8,229 nucleotides of DNA. It comes from a virus (taxonomy: Duplodnaviria > Heunggongvirae > Uroviricota > Caudoviricetes). A model generated the notes under the pieces. It saw nothing but the letters and a program-made list of their open reading frames with translations. It had not been told where the DNA came from and made no database searches. The DNA lies in the IMG/VR virus record IMGVR_UViG_3300029742_000283. The stretch is one strand, 5' to 3'. Both the position numbers and the translations under genes were made by a program. Below, piece by piece: positions 2,194-8,229 of this stretch (position 1 is its first letter; each line of letters starts with the position of its first letter).

Positions 2194-4641
2194 TTAACCG
2201 TCATGCATCATGCTGGCACGGGCGCGCGCACGTTTATCCCGCTCGTATTTTTCGAGCGCATCCTGTAACTGGCGGTCAAGCTGTGTCCCCGGCGCAGTAC
2301 CGCCCGTCAGGTTGATGTGATATTCGTTTTTACTCTGGTCCACATAAGAGCGACCAGCCGGTGCCGTGACCGGCTGGTAAGCCTGATAGCCTGCATAAGA
2401 GCTGGTCGCCGGAATATAACCACCTGTGCCATACGTGGCGGCATGAGTTCTGGCGGCAGTCTGGTCAAGTGCGTCAGACTCTTTGTTGATGACGCCGAGT
2501 TTTTCCAGTACCCAGTCAATACCGCTGCGCAGTTTGTTGAACGCATTAAGCGGCAGCATCAGCGCGTCAGCCAGTGCCTGCCCGAACATGACGCCAGTAT
2601 CACGGCAACGGTTCAGGGTGTCCTGGGTGGCTTTGACCGGGGCAATCAGGTTTTTAAACCACTGCCACGCGGCCTGTAACTTTTCGCCCAGCCAGTCAAA
2701 CACCGGCTTCAGTGGCGTGAACAGTTCTCCCACCGGCGCAAATGCCGCTTTCAGCCCTTCCACCACACCGCCAAAGAATGCGCTGACAGGCTCCCAGTAT
2801 TTACGGATAAGCAACGCCCCGGCGACAATGGCGGCCACCACAGCCACAACCGGCCAGCTAATCGCCCCGATGGCCGTCATAACAGCACTGCCAACCGTCG
2901 TGAAGATTGCCCCCATTGCGCCTGCTGCCGCGATGATGGCATTGATGCCAGTGATAACCGGCCAGGCTACGAGGCCAATGGCACCGATGACAGCAGTCAG
3001 CGCCAGTGCGCCACCGGCAATGAGGCCGATGGTTGACGCCAGTGATTTGTTTTTCTGGATCCAGCCATCGAGTTTTAACACATACTTTGTGGCCGTCTGT
3101 GTGAGATTACGCAGTGCGCCTTCCTGCTGGTCAAACAGGTCAGTCCCCACCGCCTCATAAGCGGACTGAAACTCCTTAAAGTCACCGCCGAGGTTATCCT
3201 GCATGATTTTAACCAGCTCTTCCGTTTTACCGTCCGAGGCTTTCAGCGTGGCGGTCAGCTTATCCAGTTTTCCGCTTGCTGCCGCTGCCAGTAAAACGTT
3301 CGCTGATTTCAGGGCTTCCTCACCAAAAATGGTTTTAAGGTATTCCCCCTTCTGAGACGTTCCCAGCTTGTGTTTATCAAAGCTGGCCTGAATCTCTTTC
3401 AGAATGGTGAACAACGGACGCATATTTCCCTTTTTGTCCGAGGTTTTAACGCCAAGCTCTTTGAGTGCATCCCATGCTTTTCCAGTCGGTGCCTGTAATC
3501 GGGTGACAACGGCACTGCTACCCGTACCCGCCATTGACCCCCTGATGTTATTGTCATGCAGCACACCTGTCATGGCCGCTGCCTGCTCAAGACTTACACC
3601 TGCCGTCCTCGCAACCGGCCCGAGGTAAGTCAGTGCATCACTGAGCCCCTGAAAATCAGCCGCCGACTTATTCATCGTTGCCGACAACACGTCGCCCACA
3701 TGGCTGACATCATCATTTGACAGTTGAAAGGATGCCTTAGTCCCCAGCAACAGTTGCGCGTTTTCTTCCATCGACCGCTGATTCGCCAGTGCCATATTCA
3801 GCGTGACCGGCGTTGCCGCCTGAATAGCCGCAGCATCTCCACCCGCTTTCGCAATGATAATCTGCGCACCGGCCGCATCATCCGCCGAGGCGGCGGTATT
3901 ATCGCCGAGCTGGCGCGCCTGCTTGCGGAGCGCGGCCATTTCGGCGGAGTCTTTTGCCACTCCGAGCACGGCCTGCAATTCTGAGTTTTTCTGCGCAAAC
4001 TCATAACCGGGCATCAGCAACTTAACTCCGGCCATCGTTCCCGCCGCCGCAATCCCCACACCGGCAGCGCCCACTGAGGCCATATTTCCGGCCAGTTCCT
4101 TTCCTGCCTGATAACGCTGTTTGACTGCGTTAAGTTTTGCCTGTTGTGCACTGACACGCGCCAGCGCGTCACGCTGACGATTAAGCTGTGCGGTGGTTTC
4201 ACTGATACGGTTTTTCAGCCCCTGCTCATCATGTGCAAGATTGCGGGTATTAATTCCCACAGCGGCCAGTTCCCGCTGCTGGCGTTTAACGGAATCCGTC
4301 AGGCGGTTATATTTCGCCTGTAAGTCCTCCGCCGCACGCTTTGCGGATTCCAGCACTTTCGCCTGAGCACGGGTCGGTCGTTCGGTGTTTTTAAACTGTG
4401 TGGCAAGGGCTTCGGCCTCCTGCCGTGCCTTTTCAAGTGCATGACCAGTCACGGCGAGCTGTGCACTGGTCTTGCGAAATCCCTCAATACGGGATGCCTG
4501 ACCGTTCAGCTCGCGCAGTGATTTTTGTGTTTCCCGGATATCCCCCGACAGCGTCTTGCTCGCTGTACGGATGGATTTAAACGGGCGGGATGCCTGGTCA
4601 ACAGCCCTGAGCAATACCTGTAATTTTACATTGTTACTCAT
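2194..4641 (-). CDS. T: Tail tape measure protein (gpT), 815 aa
   Basis: 815-aa ORF, same length as P2 gpT. N-terminal half is rich in predicted coiled coil (Q/A/R/E/K-rich); it has a long hydrophobic Ala/Gly/Ile-rich segment typical of tape measure proteins. The start overlaps the end of the E' frameshift product. Confidence 0.9.
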   Translation of the reverse strand: MSNNVKLQVLLRAVDQASRPFKSIRTASKTLSGDIRETQKSLRELNGQASRIEGFRKTSAQLAVTGHALEKARQEAEALATQFKNTERPTRAQAKVLESAKRAAEDLQAKYNRLTDSVKRQQRELAAVGINTRNLAHDEQGLKNRISETTAQLNRQRDALARVSAQQAKLNAVKQRYQAGKELAGNMASVGAAGVGIAAAGTMAGVKLLMPGYEFAQKNSELQAVLGVAKDSAEMAALRKQARQLGDNTAASADDAAGAQIIIAKAGGDAAAIQAATPVTLNMALANQRSMEENAQLLLGTKASFQLSNDDVSHVGDVLSATMNKSAADFQGLSDALTYLGPVARTAGVSLEQAAAMTGVLHDNNIRGSMAGTGSSAVVTRLQAPTGKAWDALKELGVKTSDKKGNMRPLFTILKEIQASFDKHKLGTSQKGEYLKTIFGEEALKSANVLLAAAASGKLDKLTATLKASDGKTEELVKIMQDNLGGDFKEFQSAYEAVGTDLFDQQEGALRNLTQTATKYVLKLDGWIQKNKSLASTIGLIAGGALALTAVIGAIGLVAWPVITGINAIIAAAGAMGAIFTTVGSAVMTAIGAISWPVVAVVAAIVAGALLIRKYWEPVSAFFGGVVEGLKAAFAPVGELFTPLKPVFDWLGEKLQAAWQWFKNLIAPVKATQDTLNRCRDTGVMFGQALADALMLPLNAFNKLRSGIDWVLEKLGVINKESDALDQTAARTHAATYGTGGYIPATSSYAGYQAYQPVTAPAGRSYVDQSKNEYHINLTGGTAPGTQLDRQLQDALEKYERDKRARARASMMHDG

Positions 4642-5061
4642 TCGTGTTTCCGCTTCGCCGGAGCGCCTTTTCGCGCCATGTGATGAGTTCGGTCAGGCTC
4701 ATGGGATACAGTTCTGATGGCGGCCAGTGAAATATCACTGCCACATCCGCCATCAGGTCATCGACCGAGAGATTTTTCGGAAACGTTATTGCACCGAGTT
4801 CGGAGACAAAAAACCGACCACCTTACCGGCCAGCGCCACAAGGTCAGGCAGTTCCAGTGCGGCGACTTCCTGCTCGGTCAGCATCGGTGCAGTCATGCGC
4901 GGCAGCACCTTAATCAGTGCATCGACTTCGGAGTTCGCGACCGCAGCCAGACTGACACCGCGCAGCGTCCCGGCATTGGGTTTCATCAGCGTGACCTGTT
5001 CGATGACCTGCTCACCACGCTTGACCGGATTGTCCAGGGTAATCACATTTTCTTTGTTCAT
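4634..5061 (-). CDS. E': Tail assembly chaperone gpE+E' made by programmed -1 ribosomal frameshift (142 aa)
   Basis: I translated the -1 frame downstream of the slippery heptamer by hand: ...VGFL then VSELGAITFPKNLSVDDLMADVAVIFHWPPSELYPMSLTELITWREKALRRSGNTNE, stop TAA at 4636-4634. That is 85 aa + 57 aa = 142 aa, the size I recall for P2 gpE+E'. The E' stop overlaps the T start (4641). Confidence 0.75.
4786..5061 (-). CDS. E: Tail assembly chaperone gpE (91 aa, zero-frame product)
   Basis: 91-aa ORF matching my recollection of P2 gpE, immediately upstream of T. Contains the slippery site near its 3' end. Confidence 0.85.
   Translation of the reverse strand: MNKENVITLDNPVKRGEQVIEQVTLMKPNAGTLRGVSLAAVANSEVDALIKVLPRMTAPMLTEQEVAALELPDLVALAGKVVGFLSPNSVQ
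4807..4813 (-). other. -1 frameshift slippery heptamer T_TTT_TTG
   Basis: Seen in sequence: minus-strand GGT TTT TTG in the E frame (plus-strand caaaaaac at 4807-4814). Heptamer of X_XXY_YYZ type, positioned so the -1 frame stays open to just past the T start. Confidence 0.7.
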
Positions 5062-5117: not shown

Positions 5118-5636
5118 TCACAGGCCGATATTGCGGCGGTGTTGCTCCAGCCGGTCGACGCCGTTCACCTTCTCAATCATGTTGATGGTGTCAATTTCGA
5201 CCAGCTCCTTACCGTCCATCGTCAGCCGGAAATAGGTACAGACCACGGAGATTTTCGACTCGGTGTCTTCTCCCTGTTTACCCTCGCCGGTGTCGATTTC
5301 TTTCTGACGGCCACGCATGACCACTTCGACGGCCACCGTTTCGCCGGTATCGTCACGCTGGTAAGAGCCAGCAAAACGAATCGGCACGGCATCCACACCG
5401 GTTGCGGCGTAAAGCTCCCAGATAACCGAATCCGGGAAGCCCCCGAGCGACCACTCCATTGACAGCGCATCGTCATCAAGGCCGAGGTCTACCGGTGCGC
5501 TGCCGTTCATCCCCGCACCGCGATAGTTTTCGAGCTTACGGGTCAGTTTTGGCAGCGTGACGGACTTTGCAACGCCCTGATAGCTGTAGCCGTTCAGAAA
5601 GACGTTCATTAACTTGAGTTTGCGCGGCATTGCCAT
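5118..5636 (-). CDS. FII: Tail tube protein (gpFII), 172 aa
   Basis: 172-aa ORF matching my recollection of P2 gpFII in length and sequence; RBS AAGGAG 8 nt upstream of the ATG at 5636; directly downstream of the sheath gene. Confidence 0.9.
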   Translation of the reverse strand: MAMPRKLKLMNVFLNGYSYQGVAKSVTLPKLTRKLENYRGAGMNGSAPVDLGLDDDALSMEWSLGGFPDSVIWELYAATGVDAVPIRFAGSYQRDDTGETVAVEVVMRGRQKEIDTGEGKQGEDTESKISVVCTYFRLTMDGKELVEIDTINMIEKVNGVDRLEQHRRNIGL

Positions 5637-5648
5637 CGGTCAGGCTCC

Positions 5649-6839
5649 TTAATTGCTGTTAACCGAGGTGACCAGATTTGCCAGGTATTTATCGGTAATA
5701 CGCTGGCGCAGGGTCAGGTTTTCAAGAGGAGGCACCGGGGTATAGTCGTAGTCGATATACAGTTTTCCGGCCTTAAGGGTTTCCGCATCGTTGGATTCTT
5801 CGCTGAACCAGCATGAGCCATCCACGATATAGCCGTTTGTTTTCAGCTCACGGAATTTGGCATTGATGCCGTCAACGATGTCGCGAATCAGCGTTGCGGT
5901 GATGGGCTTGTCCACCGCCCACATGTGCGCCTCAGCCATCGTGTCGGCCAGCACCTGCGCGGTGCGGGTGTAGTTTTCAAAGAGGAACAGCGGGTCATCA
6001 GAGCAGGTACGGTTACCCCAGAATCGGAAACCGTCGCGTCGAATCAGCGTTGTGACGCCAGACTCGTTAAGCAGGTCAGCATCGGTACCGGACTCCTGCA
6101 AATCCCAGAATACGGACGCGCTGATGCCGGTAACACCGTTTACCCCGACGTTGGACAGCGTTTTATGCCAGCCCTGCTCCTGGTCGATTCTGGCACGCAG
6201 ACCCAGCGCACGGGCGGTGGCATACGCGGTGGCGGTGGTACTGGTGACCGTATCCCATGCGAGGAAATCCGGCCAGATGACCATCAGCTCACGCTGACTG
6301 AAATTCTGGCGGTAGGCTTTCACCTCGGAAATGGTTTTACAGCCCCATGCGCTGATATACCCGAAAGCGCGCAGCTTCTGGCAGACTGATGCCAGTGCAA
6401 CAGCCACCTCTTTGGTGTCCAGTCCCGGCACACCGAGAATACGCGGTTTAACACCGGTTACCGACTCTGCCGCCAGCAGGGCTTTCAGTCCGGTATACTG
6501 ACCGTTTTCGTCAGTGGTGCCGATGATATTGGAAACGGTCTGCGCGAGTTTCGTTTCTTCGTCGTCGCCGGTGCCGTCTTCCACACGCACGACAACGGTG
6601 ACCGGTTTTGACTGGTCAGCGATGGCCTGCAGCGACGCCGCCAGCGTGCCTTTTTTACCGGCCTTTGCAATTGCGCTCTGCACATTGGTAATCAGCACAG
6701 GTTTATTGAGGGGGAAGGTTTCCGCATCCGCATCGCTGGCCGTGCAGACCATGCCGACAATGGCAGTGGATACGGTGGAAATGACGCGGGTGCCGTCGTT
6801 AATCTCCAGCACCTGCACGCCGTGATGATAGTCACTCAT
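5649..6839 (-). CDS. FI: Contractile tail sheath protein (gpFI), 396 aa
   Basis: 396-aa ORF beginning MSDYHHGVQVLEINDGTRVISTVSTAIVGMV..., which I recognise as near-identical to P2 gpFI. RBS GGAG about 8 nt upstream of the ATG at 6839. Confidence 0.92.
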   Translation of the reverse strand: MSDYHHGVQVLEINDGTRVISTVSTAIVGMVCTASDADAETFPLNKPVLITNVQSAIAKAGKKGTLAASLQAIADQSKPVTVVVRVEDGTGDDEETKLAQTVSNIIGTTDENGQYTGLKALLAAESVTGVKPRILGVPGLDTKEVAVALASVCQKLRAFGYISAWGCKTISEVKAYRQNFSQRELMVIWPDFLAWDTVTSTTATAYATARALGLRARIDQEQGWHKTLSNVGVNGVTGISASVFWDLQESGTDADLLNESGVTTLIRRDGFRFWGNRTCSDDPLFLFENYTRTAQVLADTMAEAHMWAVDKPITATLIRDIVDGINAKFRELKTNGYIVDGSCWFSEESNDAETLKAGKLYIDYDYTPVPPLENLTLRQRITDKYLANLVTSVNSN

Positions 6840-6864
6840 CCGTTTAACTCCGTGGTTAATGGGT

Positions 6865-6930
6865 GCAACTATTTTCTGTTGTGCAGAGCATGAGACGCTA
6901 TTTGACCTGGCTGGTCAGTGGATGAAACAA
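6865..6930 (-). promoter_or_regulatory. Candidate Ogr-dependent late promoter for the FI operon (P_F equivalent)
   Basis: Inference from P2 architecture, where a late promoter precedes FI. Seen in sequence: imperfect dyad tgg-N12-aca (6912-6929) resembling the TGT-N12-ACA element of P2 late promoters, with an A/T-rich -10-like hexamer (minus AGAAAATA, about 6870-6877) downstream. Match is imperfect. Confidence 0.3.
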
Positions 6931-6935
6931 CAGAT

Positions 6936-6961
6936 AAAAAAGGCGGGCAATCAGCCCGCCT
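6936..6961 (-). terminator. Intrinsic terminator downstream of the tail fiber / tfa transcription unit
   Basis: Seen in sequence: stem aggcgggc (6941-6948) / gcccgcct (6954-6961), loop aatca; on the minus strand the stem is followed by TTTTT (6940-6936). Lies between tfa and FI, where P2 separates the V-G and FI-D late operons. Confidence 0.6.
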
Positions 6962-7159
6962 GCGGTATTTCCGACCATTCAGGATTTGCAGGATCCACAC
7001 GACCAGAAAGACAGCTACTGATTAATCAGGCCAATAAACACATGAACACTAAGCAATAGCCCGGCAGGTCTGAGGTACTGGCGCAATATAATTTGTGGCT
7101 GGATTACCTGTACGCACCGGAGCGGTCCGATACTTCCGGTACGTCAGATATTGAATGGT

Positions 7160-7570
7160 CTACGCCTCCGGCAGTTCAGGCCAGATGACATCCGGTGCGG
7201 TGCTGGTATCTGTTGCCGTCACAGCGTCGATATAATCCAGCACAACGTTAAGTCGGGTAGTTTCCTCTTGCGTCAGTTTGCGCCCGGCCTGCAGCTTTAA
7301 CTGAATCACGCTGATATTGGCCATTGCTGCGTCTAACAGCGACTGTTTTTTCTGTTCAGCGTCAGCTACCAGTTCATCATGAGAACGTTCCTGAGTGGGT
7401 GGTGCAGTAAATCCCCCTTCTGAATACCCCCAGCCGATTCCGGGCTGCTCACTGATATCAGAAATATTAATGAGCTGCTGATTATCCGGCACTGTGAATT
7501 CAGCCTCGCCATCCCAGACAATGACATTCACAACCATCCCATTTTCAATAACTGCATATGACGTATTCAT
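7160..7570 (-). CDS. Tail fiber assembly protein (Tfa-family chaperone), about 136 aa
   Basis: C-terminal motif ...DAVTATDTSTAPDVIWPELPEA resembles the conserved C-terminus of lambda/P2-type Tfa proteins. Preferred start is the ATG at 7570-7568, which overlaps the tail-fiber stop as TAATG and has GAGGAG 8 nt upstream; the ORF-track start at 7594 (MYYRGVCIM...) is a less likely upstream extension. Shorter than the 175 aa I recall for P2 gpG, so likely a different Tfa subtype. Confidence 0.75.
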   Translation of the reverse strand: MNTSYAVIENGMVVNVIVWDGEAEFTVPDNQQLINISDISEQPGIGWGYSEGGFTAPPTQERSHDELVADAEQKKQSLLDAAMANISVIQLKLQAGRKLTQEETTRLNVVLDYIDAVTATDTSTAPDVIWPELPEA

Positions 7571-8229
7571 TATGCAAACTCCTCGATAATACAAATCCCT
7601 GAAGCGCCTTTCCCGCCCGTCATACTGGTTCCGCTATAACCGGCATCGTATGCGCCACCTCCGCCTGAACCATATGCTTTACCGATAACACCACCGCCAG
7701 CGCCTGCACGTCCACCGCCGCCCCAGTGCGATGTTCCGCCTTCACCGCTGACGCTGATATTTCCGGACTGACCGTCGCCTCCATCTCCACCAGTGATGCG
7801 GATATCGCCAGTACTCGGCACACCTCCGTTACCGCCGTTTGTGTTTGTAACACCCGCTTTCCCGCCACCTTCGCCACCAGGAGCAATTAACGATGCGAAT
7901 ACGCTATTCCCGCCCCTGGTGCCGTTCGTCGCACTAACACCACCGGCCCCACCTGCGCCGATAGTGACTGGATAACTATTCTGTGTCGGGGTCATTATTG
8001 AAATTATTGTTCCACCGGCCCCACCGCCAGCACCGAAAAACGTTTCATTATTGGATGCAGCCTTGCAGCCGCCCCCTCCGCCACCGCCGCCCGTTATTGT
8101 GACCCTGATCCGTTTTGTTCCTGGCGTCGGGGTGTATGTACCTGATGAGGTGAAAACCCGGGTATTCAGCCAGCGTCCAACGTATCCACTTGCATCGCTC
8201 AGACCAAGATATTGAATAACCGCCTGTGT
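7570..8229 (-). CDS. Tail fiber protein, C-terminal part (5'-truncated by the window edge), glycine-rich
   Basis: The frame is open from the window edge (8229) to the stop at 7572-7570; I translated 7996-8229 by hand and found no stop (…LNTRVFTSSGTYTPTPGTKRIRVTITGGGGGGGGCKAASNNETFFGAGGGAGGTIISIMTPTQNS…). Product is dominated by Gly-rich repeats and is immediately followed by a coupled tfa gene. Occupies the position of P2 gene H, but the C-terminal region does not look like what I recall of P2 gpH. Confidence 0.7.
   Translation of the reverse strand, partial: TQAVIQYLGLSDASGYVGRWLNTRVFTSSGTYTPTPGTKRIRVTITGGGGGGGGCKAASNNETFFGAGGGAGGTIISIMTPTQNSYPVTIGAGGAGGVSATNGTRGGNSVFASLIAPGGEGGGKAGVTNTNGGNGGVPSTGDIRITGGDGGDGQSGNISVSGEGGTSHWGGGGRAGAGGGVIGKAYGSGGGGAYDAGYSGTSMTGGKGASGICIIEEFA

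Follow-up and report, generated by a model that had tools for sequence, protein, structure and literature searches.

The window analysed here is a stretch of 8,229 nucleotides (nt) of viral DNA (IMG/VR record IMGVR_UViG_3300029742_000283), whose genes all lie on the minus strand in the order known from phage P2. The 3' end of a tail-fibre gene, the equivalent of P2 H, was located at 7570-8229 (minus strand): its open reading frame (ORF) extends from 8229 to 7573 with the stop codon at 7570-7572, translates into 219 codons and runs off the window. The gene of Tfa, a tail fibre assembly chaperone of 136 amino acids (aa), follows at 7160-7570 on the same strand. Its start is an ATG that shares bases with the fibre stop (TAATG), with a GAGGAG Shine-Dalgarno sequence 8 nt ahead of it. 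A gap of 320 nt then separates the 136-codon Tfa gene from FI and the other P2-type backbone genes. Taken together, the distal part of the fibre and Tfa probably constitute a mobile host-range module (7190-8208), which would have entered the P2-type backbone from an invertible donor and would now be locked.

Joints of the fibre tip and Tfa with the P2-type backbone

The original prediction, made from the sequence of the window, described FI through ogr as near-identical to P2, and the comparison bore this out. The seven backbone genes showed 89.8-98.7% nt and 91.7-100% aa identity to P2 (NC_001895). The fibre and Tfa genes have the position and order of H and G upstream of FI. The fibre was compared with P2 H by way of its closest complete relative, that of E. 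coli EF7-18-58, which is 98.1% identical to the window over 6840-8229 and whose fibre of 603 aa is 96% identical to the window fragment in residues 385-603. This fibre contains an N-terminal collar domain (PF12571), four shaft repeats (PF03406) and a C-terminal PF21722 domain. Its residues 1-417 were 56% identical to residues 1-404 of P2 H (669 aa), through TLT(N/K)VGR(N/D)IL...AVI(Q/E)YLGL. Similarity to H was lost immediately after YLGL and the sequences were unalignable beyond; no significant alignment was obtained between the tip and the distal 265 residues of H (405-669). A breakpoint search against the P2 fibre gene, as the original prediction had proposed, thus ended right after YLGL. 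The LGL codons at 8200-8208 (minus strand, from the alignment with P2 H) mark the left joint of P2-type shaft and exchanged tip, and the true left boundary of the exchanged piece lies about 10 codons inside the window.

Tfa differs from its P2 counterpart as well. It is exactly 136 aa long and P2 gpG 175 aa, as stated in the prediction. The two proteins are 24% identical over 131 aa (E = 2e-5) and have the Caudo_TAP C-terminal region in common; the N-terminal part is different. Full-length alignment at high identity to gpH and gpG was looked for and was found for neither the fibre nor Tfa. The composition of the two genes also departs from that of their neighbours: GC content at third codon positions was 0.46 for the tip and 0.50 for Tfa, as against 0.59-0.70 for the backbone.

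The same tip and Tfa were found joined to backbones other than that of P2. The DNA match to the cassette of a Mu-like-tail prophage (L005) spans 7190-8208 with 91.4% identity and ends 30 nt before the Tfa stop. In E. coli CV839-06, the cassette is 99.1% identical over 7177-8229, whereas the sheath, tube and D genes of that prophage are only about 67% identical, which indicates a recent transfer. The sharp break at YLGL, the lower GC content at third positions, the nearly identical cassette on a distant backbone and the grafts at LGL elsewhere support the idea, put forward in the original prediction, that an exchanged fibre tip and Tfa sit on a P2-type backbone. As judged from these comparisons, the interpretation of the two as a horizontally exchanged unit is well supported. 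Exchange of fibre tips together with their chaperones among unrelated phages has reportedly been known since the sequence paper on P2 H and G of 1992, which PMC13100340 cites. The literature searched yielded no paper that describes this tip on a P2-type fibre or mentions PF21722. The exchange is an ordinary instance of phages trading host-range cassettes: the principle is known, and the tip family is curated with a solved member. It serves as a textbook illustration of fibre modularity and adds no new principle.

The glycine-rich tip and its chaperone

Glycine makes up 67/219 residues (30.6%) of the fibre fragment and 173/2099 (8.2%) of the backbone proteins; the last 209 fibre residues are 31% glycine. 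The runs quoted earlier, GGGGGGGG, GGDGGDG and GGGGRAGAGGG, were all found in the fragment, each in its place. Residues 28-216 (7582-8148, minus strand) match the Pfam family PF21722 (Gly_rich_2), which has a domain both rich in glycine and TNF-like (resembling tumour necrosis factor), of the type of cyanophage Pam3 gp24. The match scored 50.3 bits (cut-off 24.3; E = 4e-13) and covered profile positions 2-224 of 226. The Pam3 gp24 fragment reached 26.0 bits with the same profile, above the cut-off of 24.3, over positions 10-225. The domain stops 3 residues short of the fibre C-terminus, and in nearly all of the best 150 of 7,847 representatives the match ends at or near the C-terminus of the protein.

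The tip was modelled with AlphaFold2. The mean predicted local distance difference test score (pLDDT) was 57, and it was below 50 for residues 124-203, the glycine-rich half. A search with the Pam3 gp24 fragment, meant to deepen the alignment, returned only 4 proteins, so the model stayed poor. The top Foldseek match of this low-confidence model (pLDDT 57) in the PDB was the Pam3 fibre, 7YPX_A (E = 2.7e-5, TMq 0.61). As a phmmer search linked the tip to Pam3 only weakly and a profile search not at all, the connection was made through Pfam and Foldseek, and on this footing the tip fold is likely to be of Pam3 gp24 type. The tip is presumed to be the receptor-binding part of the fibre. Behind Pam3, Foldseek ranked tail-tip proteins of mycobacteriophage Bxb1 (PDB 9D93, chains Pa, Qa and Qb) and, from human and nematode ALK, the glycine-rich domain. 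These matches hint at a fold perhaps common to siphophage and myophage tips and animal receptor kinases, the quality of the model being too low to build on. Several long ORFs also lie across the tip gene at 7620-7975, in its other frames or on the opposite strand, for example a proline-rich one at 7793-7975 (plus strand). They were regarded as by-products of the GGN/NCC bias in codon use that comes with a glycine-rich protein, and not as genes.

Tfa matched PF02413 (Caudo_TAP) with 76.6 bits (cut-off 22.1; E = 2.5e-21). Its AlphaFold2 model had a mean pLDDT of 89.6, with strands in residues 3-55 and helices in residues 64-119. Accordingly, two domains can be delimited, an N-terminal beta domain of about residues 1-58 (7397-7570, minus strand) and a C-terminal helical domain of about residues 61-136 (7163-7390, minus strand). 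The sole significant PDB match of the model was 7YPX chain a, the Pam3 chaperone gp25 (E = 8e-4), so that the best matches of the fibre and Tfa models are the two chains of a single PDB entry. A phmmer search of Tfa against PDB sequences gave matches to EF-G and ClpC1 only, which were judged to be chance. In Pam3 gp25 the two domains are Met1-Ala55 and Pro64-Phe162, and fibre assembly is driven by the conserved C-terminal helical domain (64-162), which forms a trimer (PMC9608196); the split in Tfa fits this division. A phage whose tip is unrelated has a Tfa with 79% identity to residues 61-136, and residues 1-60 match only Tfa proteins adjoining glycine-rich tips. The N-domain is near-identical in six E. 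coli contexts and more diverged in the jumbo phage Goslar, whose Tfa is 66% identical overall. Tip and Tfa were found side by side in all seven contexts examined, which shows that they are inherited together.

A region with so short a Tfa could be read as the decaying fibre end of a defective prophage, with Tfa a truncated pseudogene. Several observations speak for this. The Prokaryotic Genome Annotation Pipeline (PGAP) labels the equivalent Tfa of several RefSeq genomes 'incomplete; missing N-terminus' (351 nt; L002 9321-9671, L009 4561-4911, L010 4558-4908), the region contains two true gene fragments (an inverted tfa' and the 3' end of G, see below), and in the relative EF7-18-58 the baseplate J and portal genes are truncated. 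However, both ORFs of the window are open and coupled by the TAATG overlap, with the Shine-Dalgarno sequence in front of the Tfa start. An intact Tfa of 136-138 aa, read from the ATG within the stop overlap, was present beside the glycine-rich tip in 7/7 contexts examined, including that of the lytic Goslar. Many full-length entries of 136 aa exist in the database, and one of them occurs on 285 contigs. The Tfa model is confident and, as described next, the glycine positions of the tip are strongly constrained. The pseudogene label is probably an annotation artefact that stems from models built on longer Tfa proteins, since the ORF is intact in seven contexts and its model confident. Decay of the fibre region is accordingly considered unlikely.

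The conservation of the tip was examined in 113 relatives, chosen as cluster representatives. The codons of a run of eight glycines (G8; residues 47-54, 8068-8091, minus strand) form an imperfect 9-nt repeat, GCCGCCACC x 2.7, and this array alone was reported by Tandem Repeats Finder (score 34, 80% match). Eight glycines were counted in 107/113 relatives and 5-7 in six. The domain was 212 aa long in 109/113 and 2-3 residues shorter in four, by exactly three residues in three of them, which is consistent with rare loss of one 9-nt unit. The tip of Goslar, at 67% nt identity, also has G8. Over the 109 relatives of equal length, column entropy was 0.027 at glycine positions and 0.304 at non-glycine positions. 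The variation is concentrated in non-glycine segments at 7783-8007 (minus strand; residues 75-84, 99-114, 120-125 and 142-149), which are candidate receptor-contact loops; here DNA identity to the cassette of L005 falls to 75-88%, as against 95-100% elsewhere. Alternation of glycine-rich motifs with variable segments is the pattern of Pam3 gp24 and of gp38 adhesins (PMC9608196).

The original prediction suspected that the glycine-rich region is repeat-unstable, and one might go further and regard it as a contingency locus in which slippage varies receptor specificity. The 9-nt repeat under G8, the occasional shorter runs and domains, and short GC-rich direct repeats scattered over the fibre gene would agree with such a locus. 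Against it, run and domain length are kept in nearly all relatives and in Goslar, the G8 codons are mixed (GGC/GGT/GGA/GGG) and thus form no homopolymer or perfect tract, and the relatives vary by substitution in non-glycine loops and not in length. The suspicion of instability was thus not supported. By this conservation pattern, the glycine tracts appear to be structural and selected for length, and a contingency locus here is very unlikely.

Distribution of the module and remnants of an invertible segment

The prediction had called the glycine-rich tip unusual, a view that the distribution of the domain does not sustain. PF21722 has 7,847 representatives at 50% clustering. Tip DNA was present in 262/5,426 complete E. 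coli genomes, with 77/375 matched places on plasmids. In the same set, the P2-type FI gene was present in 1,606 genomes, and tip, Tfa and P2 FI were joined as in the window in 73. Five kinds of backbone carry the same tip and Tfa, namely P2-like prophages, another Peduoviridae type (strain CV839-06), Mu-like-tail prophages, P1/P7-like plasmids and Goslar. In the Mu-like-tail prophages, the tip lies within a 308-aa fibre after homologues of Mu gp45-48, and tip and Tfa also occur on a Mu-like-tail prophage annotated with stfP. On the P1/P7-like plasmids of about 90 kb they lie inside the S gene. The graft joint is LGL on Mu-like-tail prophages, P1/P7-like plasmids and Goslar alike. Among the 113 cluster representatives, in which the tip is 84-100% identical, at least six unrelated shaft sequences precede the box LGL(S/G)D(A/T)SGYVGR.

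Among about 50,700 phage records no close match to the cassette was found, the best being Goslar with 67% nt identity. A tblastn search of the tip against the phage collection returned only Goslar and covered half of the query owing to low-complexity filtering; its count is no measure of rarity. In databases, the 308-aa fibres with a glycine-rich tip of Mu-like tails (L005 8001-8927; P0119, 238 contigs) are widely named 'carbohydrate kinase' in NCBI/nr. This name was judged a propagated misannotation because the gene has a Mu gp48 homologue on one side and Tfa on the other.

The gap between Tfa and FI holds the remains of other genes. A dead, inverted tfa' remnant was identified at 7006-7188 (plus strand) by blastn and by translation against the intact tfa(+) of the P2-like phage MET_P1_103_31. 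It corresponds to about the last 60 codons, has an in-frame TAG and a 21-nt deletion, and overlaps the Tfa 3' end by 29 nt. The same fragment is annotated by PGAP as a partial tfa in EF7-18-58, and an intact counterpart is located inside an invertible segment of another locus, L010. Next to it, at 6961-7008 (minus strand), a P2-type G gene has left its last 16 codons, which agree with the 3' end of P2 G (L003 3220-3271) at 46/52 aligned positions; by this match the remnant is a scar of the replaced chaperone. A terminator scan placed a strong intrinsic terminator, which closes the fibre operon, at 6932-6961 (minus strand), just upstream of the pF/FI region. Its stem (6961-6941) has 8 pairs, 7 of them G-C, and is followed by TTTTTAT; a homologous stretch lies upstream of P2 pF. 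The only ORF of the gap, of 66 aa at 6859-7059 (plus strand), was considered as a moron or invertase remnant and rejected, as it has no Pfam match and is stitched together from the pF-upstream region, the terminator and the G and tfa' remnants. P2 has fun(Z) between G and FI, which the window lacks, and other relatives have different insertions there.

Two loci related to the window still have the parts of a switch. MET_P1_103_31 carries hin, an alternative tip and tfa' at the corresponding position, and its 27-nt inverted repeat (L001 11470-11496 / 13354-13380) resembles hix/gix and encodes AYLGLGE within H. The invertible segment of L010 includes the glycine-rich tip itself. The crossover repeats of this segment are AAACGTTGGTTTGGGAGA / TCTCCCAAACCAAGGTTT at 3767-3784 / 5593-5610, and it also carries a recombinase fragment and, as alternatives, a gp53-like tip and a second tfa. 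The crossover repeats of both encode (Y/N)LGLG(E/D). The LGL joint can therefore be regarded as the mark that a Din-invertase crossover site leaves in the coding sequence. The box of the window reads ATATCTTGGTCTGAG; it is degenerate and differs from the core of the relatives at 3/10 positions, and no inverted partner was found within 6840-8229. A functional hix/gix-like site at this box was rejected on both counts. No invertase gene is present in the window, and of an alternative segment it contains no tip and only the dead tfa' fragment of about 60 codons on the opposite strand. The lack of an invertase together with a degenerate and partnerless box points to a locked derivative of an invertible segment, and by its sequence the window looks like a locked fossil of such a fibre segment.

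Whether the locus might still be an active, phase-variable switch was weighed against the same features. Descent of the cassette from an invertible segment is clear, from the tail-to-tail tfa and tfa' with their 29-nt overlap and from LGL at the crossover position of the relatives, and invertible fibre loci have been reported in P2-like prophages of enteropathogenic E. coli (PMC4272514). However, the 320-nt gap contains gene fragments, the terminator and the pF region only, the LGL box has neither a partner nor an intact core, tfa' is truncated with a stop, and the alternative tip is absent. An active switch is therefore regarded as highly improbable. That tip and Tfa came to differ from P2 by divergence in place, for which the uneven divergence of the backbone (T only 89.8% identical to P2) could be adduced, is the least credible reading, and can be taken as already refuted by sequence comparison: identity drops abruptly after YLGL into a tip of different Pfam family and probably different fold, a P2-type G 3' end was left beside the new Tfa, and CV839-06 has a 99% identical cassette on a backbone of about 67% identity.

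The route by which the module was captured is a separate matter. We entertain the idea, doubtful as it is, that cassettes might be passed from one replicon to another at LGL boxes by the invertases of co-infecting or co-resident prophages. If so, tip and Tfa would move among P2-like, Mu-like, P1-like and jumbo phages by site-specific and not by homologous recombination, and the window would show a cassette that was captured in this way and locked afterwards. Ordinary homologous recombination at two conserved boxes accounts equally well for the capture.

Proposed working of the module and comparison with known systems

Several points weigh against the interpretation of 7190-8208 as a module of Pam3-type tip and chaperone taken from an invertible donor. 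The tip model is poor, and its fold match rests mainly on the N-terminal half together with the Pfam link. In a phmmer search of the tip against PDB sequences, the Pam3 fibre appeared only at E of about 1, and a profile built from 17 E. coli relatives of the tip had no PDB match. The Foldseek TM-score of the Tfa match is low (0.35), and Tfa is marked as a pseudogene by PGAP in some genomes. As the window includes only 10 shaft codons, relatives were needed to place the left joint. Finally, the LGL box of the window matches the crossover site poorly, and hence an invertase may or may not have acted in the exchange itself.

From the features described and the structure of the Pam3 complex, we infer a chaperone mechanism, a trimer geometry, an order of events and a receptor as follows. 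The module would consist of two genes, one for the distal approximately 210 fibre residues with a TNF-like and glycine-rich domain of PF21722 / Pam3 gp24 type, and one for the cognate short Tfa chaperone. In the tip, a hydrogen-bonded lattice would be built from the invariant glycine motifs, and the loops that vary between them would make up the receptor-binding tip. By analogy with the Pam3 gp24-gp25 complex, the variable N-terminal beta domain of Tfa (about 58 aa) may clamp the side of each tip domain, and its conserved C-terminal helices may associate into a trimer, thereby nucleating the folding of the fibre trimer from the distal end. The module is thought to have joined the P2-type shaft at the LGL box, where invertase-carrying relatives have a Hin/Gin/Pin-type crossover site, with the other joint within or just past the conserved tfa 3' end. 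The donor would have been an invertible fibre segment, which later lost its alternative tip, most of tfa' and the invertase, leaving the fibre locked in the glycine-rich form.

In P2-like coliphages the C-terminus of the fibre determines host range (PMC5285337). The different receptor proposed in the original prediction is plausible: with tips that are unrelated, a receptor or epitope other than that of P2 is likely, and the phage would most likely adsorb to a surface structure that P2 does not use. Gp24-like fibres of Klebsiella phages bind lipopolysaccharide (LPS), and host-range mutations lie in their glycine-rich domain (PMC12671077). LPS is our best guess for the receptor, at roughly even odds with an outer-membrane protein. 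In the Mu-like-tail loci (L005/L006/L007), the fibre and Tfa are followed by an Acyl_transf_3 gene (9604-10671) and then a GIY-YIG (LEM-3-like) gene (11221-11998). The former may possibly serve O-antigen acetylation, and a moron that modifies the receptor, lying beside the fibre gene, would be in keeping with LPS as the receptor.

The closest described system is the gp24-gp25 pair of Pam3 (PDB 7YFW / 7YPX; PMC9608196). Its fibre ends in a TNF-like and glycine-rich domain, as that of the window probably does, both tips belonging to PF21722, and the chaperone encoded downstream likewise consists of a beta domain at the N-terminus, variable and about 55 aa long, and conserved C-terminal helices. 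In contrast, the tips are only about 26-33% identical and the chaperones 21%, and the hosts are unrelated. The Pam3 tip follows a short helical shaft on a minimal fibre of 280 aa, whereas that of the window is carried on a long P2-type fibre with collar and shaft repeats, and gp25 has 162 aa as against 136 aa in Tfa. Gp25 is reported to leave the mature Pam3 fibre (PMC9608196).

Switches operated by Din invertases (Mu G with S/U, S'/U' and Gin; P1/P7 C with Cin; e14 P with Pin; hin-carrying P2-like phages) resemble the window in the tail-to-tail arrangement of tfa and tfa' and in LGL at the crossover position. The same tip and Tfa form one arm of the live L010 segment and are found in the S gene of a P1/P7-like plasmid. 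The window differs from these switches in lacking the invertase, the second crossover site and the alternative tip, and its tfa' is dead; it is a fixed derivative with a single state. The gp38 adhesins of T2/S16-type phages (polyglycine sandwich, PDB 6F45) also alternate glycine-rich motifs with variable, putatively receptor-facing segments, and Pam3 gp24 has been reported to resemble S16 gp38 in structure (PMC9608196). However, gp38 is a separate protein on the tip of gp37, whereas the domain in the window is the C-terminus of the fibre chain itself, and no match of the tip to 6F45 was obtained by sequence or by Foldseek.

Goslar is the only isolated phage with the cassette in the phage collection. 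Its fibre (Goslar_00090) and Tfa (Goslar_00089) genes are 67% identical in nt over 7215-8213; homology of the tip extends from the LGL box as far as the IIEEF at its C-terminus, and Tfa is 66% identical over the full length. Unlike the window, Goslar is a lytic jumbo phage of 237 kb, and its fibre of 1,324 aa has P1 S-like repeats and is unrelated upstream of LGL.

As a portable unit of tip and chaperone, the stretch from the LGL box to the tfa 3' end (7190-8208) occurs naturally on at least five tail architectures. It would be of use for retargeting P2-type phages or R-type pyocins and for host-range prediction in the approximately 5% of E. coli genomes that carry the tip. Two annotations call for correction, that of the 308-aa fibres named carbohydrate kinase and that of the intact 136-aa Tfa flagged as a pseudogene.

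The backbone genes downstream of the module, with their nt identity to P2 NC_001895, are FI (5649-6839; 96.1%), FII (5118-5636; 98.7%), E (4786-5061; 95.7%), the tape measure gene T (2194-4641; 89.8%, and 91.7% aa identity), U (1700-2179; 97.3%), D (537-1700; 98.5%) and ogr (237-455; 98.2%), all on the minus strand. T is thus less P2-like than its neighbours (96-99% nt), which suggests a second mosaic patch within the backbone at this gene. In CV839-06, a gene with a reverse-transcriptase domain (L008 128-901, beside ssrA) lies between ogr and the tmRNA gene, and might represent a retron or a defence moron of another kind at this end of the prophage.

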